Source: a virus (taxonomy: Duplodnaviria; Heunggongvirae; Uroviricota; Caudoviricetes). Taken from it: a stretch of 64,000 nucleotides of DNA. Location: positions 56,333-120,332 of IMG/VR virus record IMGVR_UViG_3300028260_000001, one strand, 5' to 3'. Under the pieces are notes generated by a model, which saw only the letters and a program-made list of their open reading frames with translations, had not been told where the DNA came from and did not search any database. This document shows positions 6,690 through 61,958 of this stretch, piece by piece. The position numbers and the translations under genes were made by a program. Every line of letters starts with the position of its first letter. Position 1 is the stretch's first letter.

Positions 6690-7097
6690 TTATACACCGT
6701 TATTCAATTTAGCGATTTTGAGTACGCGTGAGTCTTGGAATTGTACCATCCAACCCACGGTAAATGTTTTGCTGTCAGTAACGACGTACCCGGTGAAGTT
6801 GATCGTGTATTGTGAAGGTTTTTCTGCATCCTCCACAACTGTCACGTTGGCATATGAATCAGCATTGAACGCTGCTTTTAGTTTGGCATCGAGTTCATCT
6901 TGCAACTTTGTTTCCAGATCCAACATGCGGTTAGCATAGATCTTCAACAGGTATTGCAAAGTGATGTTTTGATCACGGTGTGTTACCGTCATCGAATGAT
7001 TCGATTCCATAAAGCAGGCGATAATGTAGTCAGCCTTATCTTCGGGATGGTCGATCCAACCTTTCAATCCCATCGTCGGGATATATTTTTCAGCCAT
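6690..7097 (-). CDS. Conserved hypothetical protein
   Basis: 135 aa ORF in operon context. Confidence 0.6.
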   Translation of the reverse strand: MAEKYIPTMGLKGWIDHPEDKADYIIACFMESNHSMTVTHRDQNITLQYLLKIYANRMLDLETKLQDELDAKLKAAFNADSYANVTVVEDAEKPSQYTINFTGYVVTDSKTFTVGWMVQFQDSRVLKIAKLNNGV

Positions 7098-11120: not shown

Positions 11121-13019
11121 TTAGTACATCAGACCAGTCGAACCGCCAACTTGTGGCAGGTGCTGGTTTTGGTTCTGGATGTAGGTAGCAACGTTCGCAA
11201 CACCTTGAACGTTCATGCCAGCCAGACCCATGTTGCCTTGGAAGCGCTGACCACCGAACACGGAGCCGATGTTGTCCATGGTAACCGCGATGCCAGCTTT
11301 CTGCTGTGCGGCGTCCATAGCTGCAACCAGTTTCGGGTTCATGATGGCACGGGTAACACGACCAGCGTAGGTCACGTTGCCCAGGTACTGCTTGTCGTAC
11401 TGCTCGGACTTCTTCAGACGAACTTCAGGGTGAACGTTCGGGTTGCACTTGGCACCGTACCAGTCCATGAACTCAGCAACGACGCCGTCGCACGCGTTCA
11501 GAGCGTAAAGGGTGTCGAGGTCACGGCGGTCACGCTTCTCGCCGTTTTCGTCAGGGTAGTAGCCCAGGTGGAAGTCAGTGCCGTATGGACGGAACAGCCA
11601 CTCGTTGGCGATGTCGAACACGGAGGTGAAGTTATCACGACCGTACAGGTTGCACAGGATGCGGATGATGCCAGCCTTAGCAGCTTGTTCGTTCACGCCA
11701 CCCATCGAATCGATGATCATGGTTTCGATGAACGAGTTGTCGCCCATGCGGTCCAGGTCCAGCATGATGACTGGATGCTGTTGCACTTGGGAGAACATCA
11801 GACCAGCGAAGTCTGCTTCGGTGAAGGTATCGGACTTGGTCTCTACCTTGGTAGCAGCAGCGGTCAGGTAACCGACAGCACCGATGTCACGTGGATCTTT
11901 GATGCGACCGATGGTTGGCAGGAACTGCTTAGCCCAGCCTTGACCGTTGGTTGCACGGAAGGCGTTACCCAGCGAGAAGAAGTACATCTCAGGGGTGTTA
12001 GCCATGATCCAGTTAGCTTGCTTGACCGCGGTAACGACCAGAGCAGGCATGAACGGAGCAGGTACTGGACCTTGTGGCATGCCGTAGACTTGTTGTACTT
12101 GCTGAGGCGCGTACTCGAGGTCGACGAACATGGCTACCGAGTTCAGCTGGGAGTCAGCATCGTAGTACTCGTTTTCCTGAACGTTCTGGCCTTGCTTCTT
12201 ACGACGCTGCAGGGTCACGACCAGGTCGGAACGCTGTGGCAGACCGGTGTTCGATTCGACTTGTGCACCGGAGTAGTCGATGGTGGCAGCCAGGATTTCG
12301 TCAGCGGACTGCATGTCTTGAGCCAGGGAGAACGGACGTTCGTCGCTCAGGCGAGCCATGGTGTCTTCGACGGAGTTGACCGACTTGATCAGCAGGTTAC
12401 GGACAGCCACTTTGTCTTCGAAATCGAATTCGGCGTGGATGGCTTGTGGACCGGCGTTGAATACGTCGGCACCTGGGTGACCGGTAACTTGGCGAACGTG
12501 TGCAACGACACGCGACCAGTACAGCGGGGTGAAGATGTCCGATGCGTCTGGCTTGGCTTCGAACTTGTCGAAGGTGCTGAAGCCGTTGGCGATCTGGAAG
12601 GTCTTCGGCTTGATGGCAACCGAACCGTCAACGATCGGCAGAGCCTTAACCAGAATGGCTGGCTTACCACGGTTGTCGACCAGTTTCAGAACCAGGATCG
12701 AAGCCATGGCTACTTGGTGCTGGGTACGGTCGAAGCGGAACAGGTGGAAGCTGTCAGCCAGGTCTTGTTGCTCGATGGCTTCGGCACGAGCTTCGCTGAA
12801 TGCGACGAATGCTTTGGTGGTACGGGCATCATTACCATCGGCACGACCCGAACGGCTGAAGCGAGAGTTGATGGAGCTGATACCGCTGGAAACTGGGAGT
12901 GGTGCTTGCATTTGCTGTGCTGCCTGAGGTTGTGGGGTTTGCGGTGCAACGTACTGCTGTTGGGCTGCTGCGGCTGCTACTGGGGTTTGTGCTGCTTGGT
13001 TGCTCTTGTTTACCGACAT
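11121..13019 (-). CDS. chmA: Chimallin, the major phage-nucleus shell protein
   Basis: 632 aa; segments INSRFSRSG, AIEQQDLADSF.LFRFDRTQHQV, NLLIKSVN, ANTPEMYFFSLGNAF and EKRDRRDLDTL match recalled 201phi2-1 gp105; Gln/Ala/Pro-rich N-tail; upstream of the beta-prime gene. Confidence 0.95.
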   Translation of the reverse strand: MSVNKSNQAAQTPVAAAAAQQQYVAPQTPQPQAAQQMQAPLPVSSGISSINSRFSRSGRADGNDARTTKAFVAFSEARAEAIEQQDLADSFHLFRFDRTQHQVAMASILVLKLVDNRGKPAILVKALPIVDGSVAIKPKTFQIANGFSTFDKFEAKPDASDIFTPLYWSRVVAHVRQVTGHPGADVFNAGPQAIHAEFDFEDKVAVRNLLIKSVNSVEDTMARLSDERPFSLAQDMQSADEILAATIDYSGAQVESNTGLPQRSDLVVTLQRRKKQGQNVQENEYYDADSQLNSVAMFVDLEYAPQQVQQVYGMPQGPVPAPFMPALVVTAVKQANWIMANTPEMYFFSLGNAFRATNGQGWAKQFLPTIGRIKDPRDIGAVGYLTAAATKVETKSDTFTEADFAGLMFSQVQQHPVIMLDLDRMGDNSFIETMIIDSMGGVNEQAAKAGIIRILCNLYGRDNFTSVFDIANEWLFRPYGTDFHLGYYPDENGEKRDRRDLDTLYALNACDGVVAEFMDWYGAKCNPNVHPEVRLKKSEQYDKQYLGNVTYAGRVTRAIMNPKLVAAMDAAQQKAGIAVTMDNIGSVFGGQRFQGNMGLAGMNVQGVANVATYIQNQNQHLPQVGGSTGLMY

Positions 13020-44680: not shown

Positions 44681-46369
44681 ATGGCAACAACATTCACTCC
44701 TTTTACTCGATCAGCCTTCCTGGACCCCGAACGTGGGTTCTGGACTTGGCTTCGATCGGAGATCGTTAGTTTCCCAGGCGAAACTAACAAGTTCATTCCA
44801 AACGTGAACGATGCTGTCCGCGACTGGGACCAAGGGTTGTTCCGCGTTATCGAAGTCGATCAGACTACAGGCATGTCGGTACTGGAGAAATGGGTAGAAC
44901 CAGAATCTCCAGATCCGGATGGTCCTGAGAACGTACTGATCGCAACTGGCCCAGGTTACACTTCGGAATCCTTCCGTATCTTCCTGGATCAAACCGTTAC
45001 GCCACACACGTTCTCTCCTGACCTCCGTTGCCATTTCTATGGTACTGAAGTCCAAGGCTACAAGATCTTCCAGGGTAGTGATATCTCGGAAACTTACGGC
45101 AAAGTGATTTCGGAATACTACGATGCTTCGGGTAACTATCTGGGTCCAATGATTCCAGTTGAAGTTGCTCTGTTGCCAGGCATGCTACCAGGTACTCAAT
45201 ACCAAAGCGGTGTGACTGTACCAATGGCGGGTTATACTTCGGTTAGCCTACCGGACGGTGAACGGGTTACTCTCGTAGCCTACTCCGCTAACGGTAAACA
45301 GCTTTCTATTGCTCAACTCGTAGTAGTGAACTCTCAAGCTATTCGCCAACCGGATACGTCGAAGCGTTACGTTAAAGGTATCTCGATTGATTCTTCGTGG
45401 ATTAGTTCTGCTGATCCTAAAGTCATTGAGTTCCCACTGAACGTTGCTGTCGAATCGTTGCCGATGGTTGCTCGGGTTCATTACCGTGATGGTAAGAAAG
45501 AAGCCAAGGCTGTCAATGGCGGTCAAATGGAACTGTTGGGTCTCCGTAACTACGTGGCTACTGAAGTGGGCCAAGAGTTCGGTATGACACTGACCTATCA
45601 ACTGGCTCAGGATGAGATCTCTTATGGTCTCAACCCAACTACCGATCGTAAGATCACCATGTCTTACATTGCTCGGACTACTCCAGCAGAAGGCGCTTAC
45701 GAGTGTCGTATGTTTGTTTATCCGGTGTGGGTAAACGCGGCTGTTGGTTACCGGTTGGAGTTCTGGTTGTATAACCAAGATCGGGAACGGTTCTGGAACA
45801 TCACGCCACAGGTTGAACTGGGTATGACTTCCAAGCCGTTTGATCCGAAAGGTTACGGCTTCATTCAAGACCTGACCTACGCGGTTAACTTGAACGAAGT
45901 GGATGGTGTCTTTAAACCAGTTCGTTTCGTTAGCTCTTTCCAGCTCGCTCTCTTGACAGCTGGTGGGAACACTGACGCGAATTGGGAAATCAAGTTCCGT
46001 CCTGACCAAGAAGTAGCTTATGGTCGAGACCTGAAAGCAAACGTGGAATATATCGAAACCAACCAGTGGAACCTACGACTGGCTAACGGTATGCAGACTA
46101 AGGAAACTTGGCTGCAGAAGATGTACTACAATGCTGAACCTCTGATTAACCCAGAGTCGGAAGTAGTTGCTCCTGAACCTACGCACTTCCGTGTACAGTT
46201 CTTGCACAACACTTACGAGTACGCGATCTCTCAATGGAACGAAGTATTGAAGGTAAACAACGACCTCACTAACAACGGTGAACTCGTTTACATTCAGTGG
46301 ATTCGTCGAACTGTAGGCACCGACCTACAGCTTGCAATCACCGCATTGCCCCTGAAACAGCTCGTGTAA
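44681..46369 (+). CDS. Virion structural protein (phiKZ gp26 position)
   Basis: 562 aa, synteny upstream of the terminase. Confidence 0.65.
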   Translation: MATTFTPFTRSAFLDPERGFWTWLRSEIVSFPGETNKFIPNVNDAVRDWDQGLFRVIEVDQTTGMSVLEKWVEPESPDPDGPENVLIATGPGYTSESFRIFLDQTVTPHTFSPDLRCHFYGTEVQGYKIFQGSDISETYGKVISEYYDASGNYLGPMIPVEVALLPGMLPGTQYQSGVTVPMAGYTSVSLPDGERVTLVAYSANGKQLSIAQLVVVNSQAIRQPDTSKRYVKGISIDSSWISSADPKVIEFPLNVAVESLPMVARVHYRDGKKEAKAVNGGQMELLGLRNYVATEVGQEFGMTLTYQLAQDEISYGLNPTTDRKITMSYIARTTPAEGAYECRMFVYPVWVNAAVGYRLEFWLYNQDRERFWNITPQVELGMTSKPFDPKGYGFIQDLTYAVNLNEVDGVFKPVRFVSSFQLALLTAGGNTDANWEIKFRPDQEVAYGRDLKANVEYIETNQWNLRLANGMQTKETWLQKMYYNAEPLINPESEVVAPEPTHFRVQFLHNTYEYAISQWNEVLKVNNDLTNNGELVYIQWIRRTVGTDLQLAITALPLKQLV

Positions 46370-56235: not shown

Positions 56236-58080
56236 ATGAACGTATATGAATGGATGGGCGCAACTGAGAGCGAACCACCACTACATGAAGATGATTCCCG
56301 AGAAGACCCAACCCATCGTCCCCAAGTTCCTCACGAAGATGACGATAACAGACAGCACCATGGCGACAGTTCGCCAGCCGGTGGTGGTCGAGTACAATCT
56401 GAAACCGAACACCAAACAGATCGTGTCATCCAAGACCCAGAGATGCTAGAAGACCTGACTGCATCTAACGAATCGATCATTGAAGACATTCGTAAGTTCT
56501 TCAAGATGCACAACCGCGGTAGTAAGTTCGAAGAGATGGATGGTAATGCTCGCGCAGGCGCAGCTAAGATCCTTAAATCCATCGGTGATACTTTCGCTAA
56601 TAAGCAGTGGTTGGATAAGCAAACTCCGATCACGCACAAAATCAAAGTAGGTGATCTGACCGATCGACTGAACCTGGATCAGATGGCTGCCACGATCAAA
56701 GAAACCTATGCGATTAATGCTTCGTTCCAGAATGCCATGCAAACAGCACAACAACAAGTGTTGAAGCAAATGCTCCCAGTTATGAAACAGTGGGGAGCTG
56801 ACAAGATTACCGATAAGGTGTATGAAGCTACTAAGGCAATGCTGAAGGAAGTTAAACCTCTCAGCGAAGTCATTAAGAAGCCAACTCGCCTAAAGACCAA
56901 TCTGCTGCCAGGCGAAGCTACTGCTGAAGGGCGTGATCCCATGACTCCAGAAGAAGTTCTGGAAGTAGCGACAATCATCCTGAACTCGATGAAGGAAGAC
57001 TCTCAGCAAATCGAAACGAACTCTGAATGGATCTATGGCGAACTGGAAGGTTTCCTGGATGCAGAGTATGAAATCGAACGTAATGATGGCCACTCAGAAT
57101 CCTACAACCTAGAAGCGTGGATGGATCTTTGTGCAGCTGTCTACCGTAAGATCTCCATTGATACTGTTCCAGAGATGATGGCGGCATTCCGTCAATTCGA
57201 AGGCGCATGCGTTGCAGCGGTTATCTACATGGAACGTTCTTTCAAAGGTGGTAAGGGTGTAGCTGTAGAAGACTTCACCATCGCTAACGAAGGTTTCCTG
57301 GATGCCATCAAGAGCCTGTTTAAACAGAAACCTAAAGACGTAGAAGTCAAAGGTCTGGATAACAACGTGATCAAGCAACTCGAAGACACCCTGTTAAATG
57401 ACAACTGGCTTAAAGAACAGACGCTGACTACCGGTACTGTTGAAGTTCGTTTCCCAGATGCAGCTCAGGATGGTAACTACAAACCACTAGTAGGTCGTAT
57501 CCAGCAAGAACTGGACAAGGCGGCTAAGATCAATGCGGCAGCGTCCAATAAATGGCTTAACTACATCAAGGTTGGTGTGGATCTTATTATCTCTGGTAAC
57601 CTAAAGAATGCCAACCTAGAACAAGTTCAGAAGCTAAACGAATTCATTGTCTATGATGATATTGATTTCGGTCGACAGGACATCGAGCCCGATAACATTA
57701 CTGAAGATGACGCTGAAGTTGAATTGCCAGCTCTTGATGAGAAAGGAATCAAAGAGGCAACGAAGACAATCATCCAGTTGATTGAAATGCGTAATCAATA
57801 CGGTAGGAAATCATTCGGTAATGTGCCTACTTACGTTCCTAGCAAGCGTAAAGAAATGATCGAGAACCTGGAGGATGATGATCTACGTGAAGCCTTAACG
57901 ACGTTGTGTTCAGAAGTAGACGACATCCTGGGGTATTTCGTAGAGGGCTTCTACCAACATCAGTATAACTACTTCTACATGGTAGAAGGGTTAGCTAAAC
58001 CACTGATGCATTGGATCCAGAAATCGATCACTGGTATCAAGTACGGTAATGAGGCATTTGCTGATGTGGGAAAGCGTTAA
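56236..58080 (+). CDS. Internal head/ejection-type virion protein with an acidic propeptide and repeated modules
   Basis: 614 aa from MNVYEW (AAGGA RBS); acidic N-terminus; SNE, ANE and GNE match the phiKZ prohead protease S/A/G-X-E cleavage consensus; two full homologous modules. Confidence 0.7.
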   Translation: MNVYEWMGATESEPPLHEDDSREDPTHRPQVPHEDDDNRQHHGDSSPAGGGRVQSETEHQTDRVIQDPEMLEDLTASNESIIEDIRKFFKMHNRGSKFEEMDGNARAGAAKILKSIGDTFANKQWLDKQTPITHKIKVGDLTDRLNLDQMAATIKETYAINASFQNAMQTAQQQVLKQMLPVMKQWGADKITDKVYEATKAMLKEVKPLSEVIKKPTRLKTNLLPGEATAEGRDPMTPEEVLEVATIILNSMKEDSQQIETNSEWIYGELEGFLDAEYEIERNDGHSESYNLEAWMDLCAAVYRKISIDTVPEMMAAFRQFEGACVAAVIYMERSFKGGKGVAVEDFTIANEGFLDAIKSLFKQKPKDVEVKGLDNNVIKQLEDTLLNDNWLKEQTLTTGTVEVRFPDAAQDGNYKPLVGRIQQELDKAAKINAAASNKWLNYIKVGVDLIISGNLKNANLEQVQKLNEFIVYDDIDFGRQDIEPDNITEDDAEVELPALDEKGIKEATKTIIQLIEMRNQYGRKSFGNVPTYVPSKRKEMIENLEDDDLREALTTLCSEVDDILGYFVEGFYQHQYNYFYMVEGLAKPLMHWIQKSITGIKYGNEAFADVGKR

Positions 58081-58811: not shown

Positions 58812-58936
58812 GAATAAAATACTTGGCGGGAGATAGTATAGTTGAGGACCTGCGTGCCTCAACACCACCCAGTCACTCGCCGGAGCATCCTACGGAGCGC
58901 TTCTAGAAGAGATCCTTCTGTGATTGTCACTTGTAA

Positions 58937-58966
58937 GGGCTATCCTTCGGGATGGCCTTTATGCCG
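58937..58966 (+). terminator. Terminator with TTTATGCCG tail
   Basis: GGCTATCC-TTCG-GGATGGCC-TTTATGCCG. Confidence 0.75.
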
Positions 58967-58995
58967 CAATCGTATGTTACAGAAGGAGAACCACA

Positions 58996-59511
58996 ATGAG
59001 TTCATTTACCCGCTTTACCGCTGCAAACCACTTAACCCTGGATGACAACGCTAGCAACATCTTAGGGAAGAACTATTACCGTGTCACTGAAGGCTTCCGT
59101 TATTACATCGGACATGAGAACTCAGACAAGTATGTCGACGTCCCTACCGGCTTTCTAACTGACGGTGCTTCCGTTCCATTCTTCCTACAGTGGTTGATTC
59201 CACCCCTGGGCGAATATTCCCAAGCGTGTACCTTACACGACTGGTTGTGTGAACATTATGAAATTACGCAAGTAGTTAATGGTGTGCCTACCCAGGTGAA
59301 GATCGACCGTGAAGAAATTGATCGTATTCTTTACGAAGCCATGCGTGTTTTGAATGTTGCTGCTTGGAGACGGAACATTATCCAAGTTGGCGTAGACGCG
59401 TACCGATTCGTCACCCGGCCTACTAAACCAAAAGTTGACCCAAGAAAGACGGAGCTCGAACGTGGAACGAATTATTCGCTTGGCCCTGCGACCGCTTTAC
59501 CAGCCGGTTAA
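58996..59511 (+). CDS. DUF1353-family protein
   Basis: VPTGFLTDGASVP and ACTLHDWL motifs, then IDREEIDRILYEAM; AAGGAG RBS. Confidence 0.85.
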   Translation: MSSFTRFTAANHLTLDDNASNILGKNYYRVTEGFRYYIGHENSDKYVDVPTGFLTDGASVPFFLQWLIPPLGEYSQACTLHDWLCEHYEITQVVNGVPTQVKIDREEIDRILYEAMRVLNVAAWRRNIIQVGVDAYRFVTRPTKPKVDPRKTELERGTNYSLGPATALPAG

Positions 59512-59656
59512 AGACGTAACGAAACACCTGGCAATCACACACATCCCACTGGAAGCCGATAACGAGATGATTCGTATCGGTGGTGGGTTTAACAAAGGAC
59601 GCGGATTCGTTCGTGTTGATCTGTGGCGCGATGCTTACCGAGTAACACGGAAATGA
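59462..59656 (+). CDS. Small hypothetical protein
   Basis: Likely GTG start with GGAG upstream; ATGA overlap with the next gene. Confidence 0.4.
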   Translation: MERIIRLALRPLYQPVKDVTKHLAITHIPLEADNEMIRIGGGFNKGRGFVRVDLWRDAYRVTRK

Positions 59657-60051
59657 AAGAAGTATTCTTAGGTGGTACGTGCGCCGGACCCGATTACCGG
59701 GAGCAGTTGATTCCATTACTAACTGTTCCTTACTTCAACCCAGTTGTTAAAGATTGGAAGCCAGAAGATGCCGCAAAAGAAGACGCAGCGAAGCAGTCTG
59801 CCAGCATTAACGTGTTTGTCATTACTCCTGCTGCTGTGGGTATGTATTCTATAGCAGAGCTCACAGAACTCGCTATTCAATCCGACAGACCGTTATTCGT
59901 AATGTTCATGGAAGTCGAAGGGTTCACCTGGAACGAACATCAACACCGATCCAACGAGCAGATCAAGAAGTTGTTGTCGAAGTACAAAGCGTTCATCTTC
60001 GAAGACCTACCTAAGATGGCTAACGTCATTAATTGGATGGCCAATCGATGA
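59653..60051 (+). CDS. Nucleoside 2-deoxyribosyltransferase-like protein
   Basis: VFLGGTC...YREQLI...YFNPVVKDW...VFVITP...YSIAE pattern of the Nuc_deoxyri_tr2-type family. Confidence 0.75.
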   Translation: MKEVFLGGTCAGPDYREQLIPLLTVPYFNPVVKDWKPEDAAKEDAAKQSASINVFVITPAAVGMYSIAELTELAIQSDRPLFVMFMEVEGFTWNEHQHRSNEQIKKLLSKYKAFIFEDLPKMANVINWMANR

Positions 60052-60183
60052 TCTCCTACATCCCGCATCCAACGGCTTTTGCCAATCGCCCACCTTTCTT
60101 GCGTGAGGGTGCGCTCGTTGTAGAAGATAGCAACAAACGAAGACCTCCGGCTAATTACCGGTCAGGCAAACGAGATCCTCAAC

Positions 60184-60690
60184 ATGTGGGAACAATTACT
60201 AGCAGGTAAAAAATACGATCCGCCAGGCGATACATTGATTTCAATGTTGGCAGATACCACTGGACTAGCGGTAAATGGAAACGGTGAAGTCTATGCACCA
60301 AACAACCAGCAAACTACGCCAGGTGATGGTAAACGCTATGACTTCAAACCAGATCCGCAAGGCCGCCTGATTAAGAAGCTAACAGCTAATTTCCGTTATG
60401 CTGCTAACACAGCCGCTCTTACAGCGGCTTACTTCTATTGGCTACCAGGAACTACATGGGATACTCGCGTTGGTTTATATGACGAATGGAACGGTCAAGC
60501 TGGATTCCGTCTAGTTTCCGATCTCCATGATCGAGTGCTGGTGACCGCGGACTTCAATGGTACCTTAACGCGCACTTTCGATCCACCCATCCCACAGAGT
60601 GAATTGAGTGTTAAGTTTGGTGGTCGAACAGGACTATCATATTCACCGGCATACATCACAAATATCGTCCTCGAATACGATGAGAACTAA
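60184..60690 (+). CDS. Hypothetical beta-rich protein, possibly virion accessory
   Basis: 168 aa; N-terminus shared with the 63558 ORF. Confidence 0.6.
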   Translation: MWEQLLAGKKYDPPGDTLISMLADTTGLAVNGNGEVYAPNNQQTTPGDGKRYDFKPDPQGRLIKKLTANFRYAANTAALTAAYFYWLPGTTWDTRVGLYDEWNGQAGFRLVSDLHDRVLVTADFNGTLTRTFDPPIPQSELSVKFGGRTGLSYSPAYITNIVLEYDEN

Positions 60691-60827
60691 GTTGTTGTTT
60701 TATATACAACTATATGTGATTGGACCAGCGCAATAGTGCAATCCAATCACAGTTGTCTTTGCCCCGAAGTAAAATAATACTCGGTGTGTAATAGTATACG
60801 AGAGCAGTTGCTGCCTCATGCTTGATG

Positions 60828-60903
60828 GTGAACGTAGTTCAGTTGGTAGAACCCTGGAATGTGACTCCAGTGGTCGAGAGTTCAATCCTCTCCGTTCACA
60901 CCA
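60828..60903 (+). tRNA. trnH: tRNA-His (GUG)
   Basis: Cloverleaf: GTGAACG/CGTTCAC, D-stem GTTC/GAAC, CTGGA-ATGTGAC-TCCAG, T-arm GAGAG-TTCAATC-CTCTC, encoded CCA. Confidence 0.9.
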
Positions 60904-60941
60904 ATTCACGATGGCGTTATAAACGACATTGTTTGCTTTAA

Positions 60942-61024
60942 GGGTTGTTAGGGGAGCGGTCAAACCCATCGGACTGTAAATCCGCGCCTAGGCTACCGTG
61001 GTTCGAATCCACGCCAACCCACCA
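60942..61024 (+). tRNA. trnY: tRNA-Tyr (GUA)
   Basis: Anticodon loop CTGTAAA, long variable arm, T-arm CGTGG-TTCGAAT-CCACG, encoded CCA. Confidence 0.88.
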
Positions 61025-61026
61025 AT

Positions 61027-61124
61027 TTGAATTAGTAGAGGACTTGGGTTCAATACCCTTGACTCGGAAGGCCCGCCTACCCAACAGGGCTGTTAGCTTA
61101 CAGGTTAGAGCGCTACTAATTCGA
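61027..61124 (+). ncRNA. Circularly permuted tRNA-like RNA (Y RNA/YrlA-like architecture)
   Basis: Terminal 10-bp perfect stem GAATTAGTAG/CTACTAATTC encloses variable loop, T-arm, loop-closed acceptor-like stem and canonical D-arm, in that order. Confidence 0.6.
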
Positions 61125-61132
61125 TGTTTTAC

Positions 61133-61208
61133 GGCTCCATAGCGCAGCGGTTAGCGTACCGGCCTGTCACGCCGGTGGTCAGGGGTTCAAATCCCCTTGG
61201 AGTCGCCA
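61133..61208 (+). tRNA. trnD: tRNA-Asp (GUC)
   Basis: GGCTCCA/TGGAGTC, CCGGC-CTGTCAC-GCCGG, T-arm, encoded CCA. Confidence 0.93.
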
Positions 61209-61212
61209 ATTC

Positions 61213-61400
61213 GATTACCGGATCAGCTCTTGCACCAAACGGGTAACCGTTAGCTCGTTGCAAGCCTTGGTAATCTTTACTAGCATCGAAGGGTTAAAAC
61301 CCCATGACCGGGCGGACCGGCGACTGCTAGTCGATCATCTTCTGACAAACACCACTTACCGATTCGTACGGTAGGTAGAGTCCAGGTAACAAGGTGATCA
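61213..61400 (+). ncRNA. Unassigned structured non-coding RNA A
   Basis: Three consecutive closed stem domains between tRNA-Asp and tRNA-Pro; no ORF of note. Confidence 0.45.
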
Positions 61401-61409
61401 CCCTTTTCT

Positions 61410-61486
61410 CTAAGTGTAGTTCAGTTGGATAGAATGCGTGGTTTGGGACCACGTGGTCGGAGGTTCGAGTCCTCCCACTTAGACCA
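61410..61486 (+). tRNA. trnP: tRNA-Pro (UGG)
   Basis: CTAAGTG/CACTTAG, CGTGG-TTTGGGA-CCACG, T-arm, encoded CCA. Confidence 0.93.
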
Positions 61487-61493
61487 GTTTCAT

Positions 61494-61569
61494 CACCACC
61501 TTAGCTCAGTTGGGAGAGCGCACCCTGTATCAGGGTTGATGTCGCGGGTTCGATCCCCGCAGGTCGGTG
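61494..61569 (+). ncRNA. Non-canonical tRNA-like RNA or pseudo-tRNA
   Basis: Canonical D-arm TAGCTCAGTTGGGAGAGCG and T-arm GCGGG-TTCGATC-CCCGC, but anticodon arm ACCCTG-TAT-CAGGGT, bulged acceptor stem and no CCA. Confidence 0.65.
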
Positions 61570-61570
61570 T

Positions 61571-61750
61571 GCCGAACAGAAGGTACTTAGGTACAGAACT
61601 AAAACGAGGCGACGCTACGCGCCTACCTAGTAAACGCGACCTGACGCGCAGGGTAATCAATTACTAGGGAACTGTTCGGGTAAAGATTTCAAGCGCCTCC
61701 TAGTCCACACAGCGAGCTAGGGTCAAAGGTCATCCAGAGGAAGCCTGGTA
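61571..61750 (+). ncRNA. Unassigned structured non-coding RNA B
   Basis: 8-bp CCGAACAG/CTGTTCGG closing a multi-branched domain that contains a second 8-bp stem. Confidence 0.45.
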
Positions 61751-61766
61751 TCGCAATTCAATTTCA

Positions 61767-61842
61767 TTCGAGATAGCTCAGTAGGTAGAGCAGCGGACTG
61801 TTAATCCGTTGGTCCCAGGTTCGAACCCTGGTCTCGGAGCCA
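61767..61842 (+). tRNA. trnN: tRNA-Asn (GUU), copy 1
   Basis: TTCGAGA/TCTCGGA, anticodon loop CTGTTAA, T-arm, encoded CCA. Confidence 0.93.
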
Positions 61843-61847
61843 AACAT

Positions 61848-61922
61848 TCCCACTTAGCTCAGCGGTAGAGCACACGGCTGTTAACCGTGCGGTCCCTGGT
61901 TCGAATCCAGGAGTGGGAGCCA
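61848..61922 (+). tRNA. trnN: tRNA-Asn (GUU), copy 2
   Basis: TCCCACT/AGTGGGA, CACGG-CTGTTAA-CCGTG, T-arm, encoded CCA. Confidence 0.93.
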
Positions 61923-61931
61923 TTAGCATTG

Positions 61932-61958
61932 GGGAGTCTTAGGACTCCTTTTATGCCG
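61932..61958 (+). terminator. Terminator of the tRNA cluster
   Basis: GGAGTC-TTAG-GACTCC followed by TTTTATGCCG. Confidence 0.75.

Follow-up and report, generated by a model that had tools for sequence, protein, structure and literature searches.

Among the closest described counterparts of RNA genes lodged among phage transfer RNA (tRNA) genes are RNAC (species 1) and RNAD (species 2) of bacteriophage T4, which are annotated as stable RNAs inside the T4 tRNA cluster (PMC3014915) and have been validated by Northern blotting (PMC9697503). In other settings, tRNA processing sets the ends of RNAs that are not tRNAs and that go on to act in trans, as in mitochondrial tRNA punctuation and in the 3' external transcribed spacer of Escherichia coli glyW-cysT-leuZ, which is a sponge for RyhB and RybB (bioRxiv 10.1101/2021.04.25.441314). 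Here we describe a cluster of tRNA genes and interleaved structured RNAs at positions 60785 to 61953 of a window of 64,000 nucleotides (nt), the whole stretch of DNA that was analysed, which covers positions 56,333 to 120,332 of the IMG/VR record IMGVR_UViG_3300028260_000001. This record is a 305,343 bp virus genome with direct terminal repeats, and its closest named relatives are the ~305-kb Pseudomonas syringae phages D6 and Psa21, together with phage RVTF4. The elements of the cluster follow one another in this order:

60785 to 60804, + strand: promoter-like motif with the core TGTAATAGTATACGAG, its 3' end 24 nt before tRNA-His; putative promoter.
60828 to 60903, + strand: tRNA-His (GTG); ARAGORN, Infernal 66.4 bits; CCA encoded, G at position -1.
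60942 to 61024, + strand: tRNA-Tyr (GTA), class II; ARAGORN, Infernal 47.3 bits; CCA encoded.
61027 to 61124, + strand: permuted tRNA-like RNA; alignment A1, covariation, covariance model R2 92.8 bits.
61133 to 61208, + strand: tRNA-Asp (GTC); ARAGORN, Infernal 68.9 bits.
61209 to 61409, + strand: RNA A; fold z -2.96, three closed domains.
61410 to 61486, + strand: tRNA-Pro (TGG); ARAGORN, Infernal 64.4 bits.
61495 to 61569, + strand: tRNA-like element with a sealed anticodon arm; ARAGORN, Infernal 33.5 bits, fold.
61572 to 61679, + strand: RNA B core (P1 to P5); alignment A2, covariation, covariance model R1 116.5 bits.
61680 to 61766, + strand: RNA B tail, hairpins 61699-721 and 61734-48; conserved in D6 and L093, partly in Psa21.
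61767 to 61842, + strand: tRNA-Asn (GTT), copy 1; ARAGORN, Infernal 68.4 bits.
61848 to 61922, + strand: tRNA-Asn (GTT), copy 2; ARAGORN, Infernal 70.2 bits.
61931 to 61953, + strand: intrinsic terminator-like hairpin, then a U-run; dG (folding free energy) -16.1, z -2.97; region kept in D6.

ARAGORN and Rfam/Infernal agree on six canonical tRNAs, all on the + strand, at 47 to 70 bits. A preliminary description of this DNA had given the same order of elements, which ARAGORN, Infernal and the predicted folds reproduced exactly, and had placed each unusual RNA between real tRNAs, as the tRNA calls confirm. The inserted RNAs are real and modular. We consider it reasonably probable that the locus is a polycistronic operon of ~1.15 kb comprising six working tRNAs and three independent structured non-coding RNA genes, two of them built on tRNA-derived frames, which would be released by tRNA processing.

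Like T4 rnaC and rnaD, these are non-tRNA RNA genes that lie inside, and co-oriented with, a phage tRNA cluster, directly after a tRNA, but here three RNAs are interleaved among the tRNAs, and two of them come from families that reach well beyond T4-like phages. We rejected homology to rnaC and rnaD, as covariance models R1 and R2 gave no significant match on the T4 tRNA region. As a separate observation, T4 rnaC (L296 1909-2047) has a minimum free energy fold in which the 5' and 3' ends pair and a terminal hairpin takes the form of a T arm (CCGGG-UUCGAAU-CCCGG), and may itself be a tRNA-framed RNA. The proposed setting of RNA ends by tRNA processing is shared with the E. coli spacer and with mitochondrial punctuation, although the RNAs in those cases are short and mostly unstructured, or are mRNAs, whereas the inserts of the cluster have elaborate folds conserved across phages. 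Finally, the joining of a tRNA-derived frame to a non-tRNA domain recalls transfer-messenger RNA (tmRNA, SsrA), and, by eye, a short stretch of the permuted RNA looks locally like GUGGAAGCCCUGCC of E. coli ssrA, a likeness that the covariance models do not support. We rejected a tmRNA identity: ARAGORN finds none, there is no tag frame, and the scores of R1 and R2 on E. coli ssrA do not rise above noise. When the region and the individual inserts were scanned against Rfam 15 at E up to 10, tRNA matches and noise were all that came back, and a literature search by motif sequence returned nothing relevant.

The permuted tRNA-like RNA is closed by a 12-bp stem (61027-38 with 61113-24) that encloses three hairpins, namely a T-like hairpin (61043-61), an invariant hairpin of the form GGCCC[12-nt loop]GGGCU (61070-91) and a D-like hairpin (61096-111). 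The T-like hairpin precedes the D-like hairpin, the 'acceptor' position of the family is occupied by an invariant 5-bp hairpin with a loop of 8 to 12 nt, and there is no anticodon loop, because the ends of the RNA sit in the 12-bp helix. The closed invariant hairpin and the missing anticodon loop led us to reject a permuted tRNA gene of the Cyanidioschyzon type.

By blastn, the permuted RNA was identified at 80-91% identity in RVTF4 and Psa21, and also in the unrelated phages Milchi and Astolliot (~174 kb), pf16 (158 kb) and Peetri (200 kb), and in Cronobacter phage GAP31 and Enterobacter phage EC152 (148 kb). These copies usually adjoin tRNAs, and are annotated in none of the phages. Pattern scans of IMG/VR added more divergent members, and the family (n = 16) spans Pseudomonas, Cronobacter and Enterobacter phages and metagenomic viruses. 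In the 15-sequence alignment (A1) on which covariation was computed, 91.9% of structure cells are paired, against at most 54% in slid controls; changes on both sides are found in 10 of the 12 pairs of the closing stem and in all six pairs of the T stem, and none of 500 shuffles matched the observed values. Model R2 picked up L293 as an independent member, scoring 80.7 bits, and gave a single copy per genome, the present one included. The invariant part of the RNA is the part that is not tRNA-like, comprising an 8-nt strand ending in GGAA or GGAC, the hairpin GGCCC-loop-GGGCY and the following GWUAGCUUA. A pattern search for this core in 185,579 prokaryotic species genomes gave 43 matches, all of them chance matches in GC-rich coding DNA that lacked a D-like arm, so that the family looks phage-only.

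The fold invites comparison with the YrlA RNAs (RF02553; PMC4201824), in which the T arm likewise lies before the D arm, the 'acceptor' hairpin is closed and the anticodon stem is replaced by an end-to-end helix. Indeed, the whole YrlA succession of terminal stem, variable strand, T arm, closed 'acceptor' hairpin, D arm and terminal stem (PMC4201824) is present, and the permuted RNA could on this ground be a YrlA-type Y RNA that works with a Ro60-like or other ring protein, of phage or host, in remodelling or degrading structured RNA. We regard this as unlikely. Unlike YrlA, the region 61015-61140 does not match RF02553 even at E up to 10; the TROVE domain of Ro60 (PF05731) was not found in the present genome, Milchi, pf16, GAP31 or Peetri, and neighbouring open reading frames (ORFs) hold unrelated Pfam families. 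The terminal stem (A1 columns 1-12 and 92-103) varies freely, with no conserved strand, bulge or helix for the binding of Ro60. The sole YrlA-type Rfam match in the region spans both adjacent tRNA-Asn genes, and is an artefact. We could not find any gene common to the neighbourhoods of the permuted RNA in the phages that carry it; the gene of 630 amino acids (aa) next to the copy in Peetri belongs to no family and lacks a homologue in the other carrying phages. A 589-aa ORF near rtcB was also considered as a Ro60 partner and set aside, as it has no family and its Atlas model is poor.

The second tRNA-derived RNA lies between tRNA-Pro and the first tRNA-Asn. It begins with an element (61495-61568) with acceptor, D and T arms that Infernal matches weakly to tRNA, at 33.5 bits where the cut-off is 29. 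Its anticodon arm is sealed by a 6-bp stem (61524-29 with 61533-38) carrying a UAU triloop (61530-32); a single C bulges from the acceptor stem, and CCA is absent. It has the arms of the cloverleaf but neither a 7-nt anticodon loop nor a free CCA end, and we therefore rejected it as a canonical tRNA (RF00005). Stem P1 of RNA B begins 3 nt past its acceptor strand. The RNA B core is a closed multi-helix junction with the layout P1, GAAGG, P2, CAGAAC-UAAAAC, P3, A, and then P4 enclosing ACG..CGAC-P5-GGUAAUCAG, after which come GGGAAC and the return strand of P1; there is one copy per genome.

RNA B has 79% identity in D6 and Psa21, and its core was additionally identified in Vibrio phages of 47 kb and, flanked by tRNA-Asp and tRNA-Gln, in phage TPWB-08. 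IMG/VR scans gave a narrow family of 20 distinct members. In the alignment of this family (A2), the proportion of paired cells is 97.8%, changes on both sides affect 21 of 30 pairs, none of 500 shuffles matches these values, and 51 positions, mostly in the junction strands, are invariant. A T arm and a 7-nt acceptor strand finish 2-4 nt ahead of P1 in 18 of the 20 members, and most of the frames form a tRNA-shaped element of 68-117 nt with a covarying 7-bp acceptor stem. The anticodon-arm position of these frames is variable, being taken by a triloop, an odd loop or a long branched insert. The sealed element and RNA B are one conserved composite unit. A CCA was never found between the two in members of the family, and tRNA processing should thus set only the outer ends of the composite. 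Within the present phage clade, the composite extends into a conserved two-hairpin tail that reaches the 5' end of tRNA-Asn, and the first tail hairpin shows compensatory changes (CCUAG/CUAGG, CCUGA/UCAGG, CUAGA/UCUAG).

The strands of this core occur well beyond the narrow family. The strand UAAAACGAGGCG..CGCCUA was found in more than 119 IMG/VR contigs, most of which are not of the RNA B type. In this wider superfamily, which takes in more than 100 viral contigs, the order is a circular permutation of RNA B, in which UAAUCAG-P4a-GAGARC is followed by an insert and then by UAAAAC-P3-A-P4b, and the permuted core sits within a tRNA-shaped RNA, as cargo at the anticodon-arm position. For 45 of the 68 distinct members, the 7 nt that come after a T-like hairpin are fully complementary to 7 nt that lie 24-29 nt 5' of UAAUCAG; at this fixed spacing, the 7/7 complement is a predicted acceptor stem with a class II-like D arm. 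The P4 duplex has a mean dG of -7.45, compared with -3.22 with shuffled partners. The insert is a set of hairpins or a whole tRNA, such as the tRNA-Pro of L246. Copies were also identified in the lambdoid coliphages Huey and IME10, where the adjoining sequence matches lambda 44936-45022. Six superfamily loci, and one element at E up to 5, were scanned against Rfam 15 and gave no match for the element.

RNA B and these cargo-arm RNAs share UAAUCAG, P4, GAGARC, UAAAAC and a GAGGCG..CGCCU hairpin, together with a tRNA-like frame. They differ in how the core is mounted, in that the cargo-arm RNAs, with their 7-bp acceptor stem, class II-like D arm and T arm, bear the core in place of the anticodon loop, whereas the core of RNA B is closed by its own P1 and hangs 2-3 nt after the 3' strand of a separate small tRNA-like element. 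The core exists in two circular permutations, yet a tRNA-like frame is always present, which points to a role tied physically to the shape of tRNA, for example in processing, with a tRNA-binding enzyme or at the ribosome.

Several observations were made alongside. In L246 (~6850-7010), and also in L256 and L259, a complete tRNA or near-tRNA (for example tRNA-Pro GGG) is nested in the conserved core, its 3' end lying 2 nt ahead of UAAAAC. On the viral contig L190, a twister-P5 ribozyme (58.5 bits, 11480-11534, - strand) lies 1.3 kb from a superfamily member. L151 (10444-10520) and L293 (1170-1248) carry, 5' of domain 2 of RNA A, a different module containing GAUAAAACGAGUCGCC, which resembles the UAAAACGAGGCG strand.

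The features of the core also bear on whether it might have catalytic activity, for instance as a ribozyme that cleaves itself and so shapes the 3' end of the tRNA or tRNA-like element next to it, much as theta ribozymes do in gut phages. Small ribozymes are typically found in natural circular permutations, and this core is naturally permuted; its 51 invariant positions are chiefly junction strands, it lies at a fixed 2-3 nt past the 3' strand of the acceptor stem, and the permuted form can embrace a complete tRNA, with UAAAAC placed 2 nt after the 3' end of the tRNA-Pro in L246. One family-bearing contig has the twister ribozyme 1.3 kb away, and the theta ribozymes beside phage tRNAs (PMC10879173) provide a precedent. 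RNA B resembles these minimal ribozymes of hepatitis delta virus (HDV) type in being a conserved structured RNA directly 3' of a phage tRNA or tRNA-like gene (PMC10879173), but no Rfam ribozyme family matched it, and the fold that covariation supports is a closed multi-helix junction and not an HDV-type double pseudoknot. Moreover, most of the attached tRNA-like elements are unable to decode, so that processing of their 3' ends would have no obvious purpose. A catalytic role may be regarded as an attractive minority reading, and we hold it to be improbable.

RNA A, between tRNA-Asp and tRNA-Pro, is folded into domain 1 (61213-75), domain 2, a three-way junction (61279-331), and domain 3 (61333-99). 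The fold has a dG of -64.2 and a z of -2.96, and none of 200 shuffles folds as well. Domains 1 and 2 are kept in D6, and domain 2 recurs in the jumbo-phage contigs L151 and L293. Domain 2 changes in a compensatory manner among D6, L151 and L293, in its closing stem (from ACUAGCA/UGCUAGU to AUCAGCA/UGCUGAU) and in an inner stem. Domain 3 was seen in the present genome only. On these comparisons, RNA A is a clade-restricted modular RNA.

The arrangement of modules differs between relatives. The order in D6 is His-Asp-Tyr-A-Pro-[tRNA-like+B]-Asn-Asn, from which the permuted RNA is absent; Psa21 has His-permuted-Asp-Pro-[tRNA-like+B]-Asn; RVTF4 has permuted-Asp-Pro-Asn; and L293 has His-permuted-Asp-A2-Tyr-[tRNA-like+B]-A2-Asn-Asn. 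RNA B is present in two copies in L093. The occurrence of these modules between tRNAs in differing orders, in L151 as well, indicates that the inserts behave as genes of the array and not as spacers. The preliminary description had made its case depend on conservation of the inserts, and this was borne out across the related clusters, in that the permuted RNA and RNA B covary strongly and modules recur between tRNAs in relatives.

The same data address the possibility that the inserts are decaying tRNA genes and spacer debris without a function of their own. Two of them are plainly tRNA-derived, and phage tRNA arrays turn over fast, as the differing module orders among relatives illustrate. 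Nevertheless, identities of 80-91% are maintained across unrelated phage groups, compensatory changes preserve every variable helix, and the invariant blocks fall outside the tRNA-like parts. An origin as debris is therefore highly improbable, and is already contradicted for the permuted RNA and RNA B.

We investigated whether the cluster has the layout of a single transcription unit. The 137 nt before tRNA-His have 84-93% identity in D6, Psa21 and RVTF4, and contain the 16-mer TGTAATAGTATACGAG. Allowing up to two mismatches, this motif has just three copies in the 305-kb genome, each directly 5' of a tRNA unit, at record positions 117119 (window 60787), 121146 and 123976, the last two lying past the window end. 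The units behind these copies are, respectively, the present cluster, tRNA-Trp and a Leu-Ser-Cys-Thr cluster. The motif was also identified ahead of tRNA units in D6, Psa21, RVTF4, L151, L093 and L293, and from this distribution we infer that it is a likely promoter dedicated to tRNA units. No copy lies inside the cluster, and thus one promoter and one terminator would bracket all ten elements. A hairpin in the His-Tyr spacer (60908-60932) folds no better than shuffled sequence (z -0.81).

Bacterial tRNAs mature by cleavage of their 5' ends by RNase P, while RNase E and exonucleases trim them to the encoded CCA. The anatomy of the cluster can be set beside this pathway: CCA is encoded in all six tRNAs, AU-rich sequence comes after it (AUU being next in tRNA-His, tRNA-Tyr and tRNA-Asp), the inserts begin 2-4 nt past a CCA, and their 3' ends are 8-10 nt short of the next tRNA. 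We infer co-transcription and excision from this anatomy and this pathway, and the kind of target from the conservation described above; release of the inserts by RNase P and 3' processing is plausible, and the arrangement of T4 RNAC and RNAD is a precedent for it. In the model that we favour, transcription would start at the promoter-like motif reserved for the three tRNA units of the phage and stop at the terminator after the second tRNA-Asn. Host RNase P would then cut every tRNA, and likewise the tRNA-like element, at its 5' end, and RNase E or exonucleases would trim after every encoded CCA. Three RNAs would be released by these steps: the permuted tRNA-like RNA of ~100 nt, shielded by its 12-bp terminal stem; RNA A, of ~200 nt; and a composite of ~270 nt consisting of the tRNA-like element, RNA B and the tail.

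The tRNA-like frames would in this model supply processing signals and stability, and the working parts would be the invariant parts that do not resemble tRNA, namely, in the permuted RNA, the GGCCC..GGGCU hairpin and, in RNA B, the junction strands. Their retention across phages of different hosts suggests that they would most probably act on a conserved component of the host's machinery for tRNA, translation or RNA processing. More generally, non-tRNA domains this strongly conserved point towards a target conserved in hosts or towards an intrinsic activity.

Several findings weigh against release from an operon of this kind. The permuted RNA of Peetri has no nearby tRNA, a same-strand tRNA lies within 1.5 kb at just 55 of 128 RNA B-type motif sites, and the RNA B core of Vibrio phages is followed by a terminator in place of a tRNA. 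These members without flanking tRNAs imply that tRNA punctuation is common, but not obligatory, for making the RNAs. RNA A is limited to the present phage clade, with domain 3 unique to the present genome. Finally, no partner protein or target was identified.

We additionally put forward a bolder proposal, to which we assign a low probability. The RNA B core (~108 nt, with its 51 invariant positions) may be a new class of tRNA-associated functional domain used in two circular permutations, one replacing the anticodon loop of a tRNA-shaped RNA and one placed 2-3 nt past the 3' strand of the acceptor stem. It might either act as a ribozyme on the acceptor end of the tRNA or tRNA-like frame to which it is attached or, as an aptamer of high affinity, bind some universal host factor or metabolite. 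The permuted RNA may be a second, independent and phage-only mimic of the tRNA elbow that acts without Ro60.

The composition of the tRNA set raises a further possibility, that the locus serves anti-defence, with the mimics soaking up tRNA-targeting nucleases and the real tRNAs replacing host tRNAs that have been cleaved. Two circumstantial points speak for it. Four of the tRNA species, His, Tyr, Asp and Asn (the last present twice), have GUN anticodons and belong to the queuosine family, and are accompanied by tRNA-Pro. Four such GUN-anticodon tRNAs are the substrate set of colicin E5-type anticodon nucleases. A gene for the RNA ligase RtcB (428 bits; record positions 126842-128158, L290 842-2158) lies ~9 kb downstream of the cluster, and is common to D6, Psa21 and RVTF4. 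However, the substrate of anticodon nucleases is the anticodon loop, and neither mimic offers one, as one has a sealed triloop and the other a terminal helix. The anticodon-arm position of the tRNA-like element is highly variable in relatives, and the most conserved parts of the RNAs are those that are unlike tRNA. RtcB occurs in the present clade and in pf16, but three of five phages that have the permuted RNA (Milchi, GAP31 and Peetri) lack it, as do the 47-kb phages with RNA B, and we rejected it as an obligatory partner.

The RNAs are poor candidates for anticodon-nuclease decoys, and we consider a decoy function very unlikely. The preliminary description had proposed a combined system of tRNA replacement and RNA decoys against tRNA-targeting defences; nothing that we tested supports it. 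Release of the inserts from a processing cassette is a plausible reading of the locus, and the anti-defence reading is unsupported. As separate observations, the GUN-anticodon set could equally reflect NAY codon usage, and the neighbours of RtcB, of 322, 137 and 589 aa, have no Pfam family.

The surroundings of the cluster hold several other features. At 60715-60761, 5' of the promoter-like motif, there is a 10-bp inverted repeat, TGTGATTGGA..TCCAATCACA, with a compensatory change in D6; it might serve as an operator or terminate the upstream gene. The upstream genes (58924-60690) include a DUF1353 protein (58924-59511), a nucleoside 2-deoxyribosyltransferase-like protein (59623-60051) and a 168-aa ORF to which no family was assigned, and which gave no relatives in IMG/VR when used as a pattern query for related loci. 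Past the window end, the second tRNA unit contains an ORF-poor spacer of 757 nt between tRNA-Trp and tRNA-Leu(TAA) (record 121344-122100, L004 5345-6101). About 380 nt of this spacer have 83% identity in the jumbo-phage contig L151, and another non-coding RNA, or else a small gene, may lie within it.

The tRNA clusters of phages are commonly taken to be no more than a supply of tRNAs for codon usage or anti-defence, and this locus shows that elaborate tRNA-framed non-coding RNAs are found there too. It displays three kinds of tRNA-framed phage RNA side by side, two of which belong to sizeable uncatalogued families that are widespread in phages, strongly constrained in both sequence and structure, and absent from Rfam and from genome annotations. 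Relatives of these RNAs are carried by the cultured P. syringae and P. putida phages D6, Psa21 and pf16 and by lambdoid coliphages, which provide a testable entry point.

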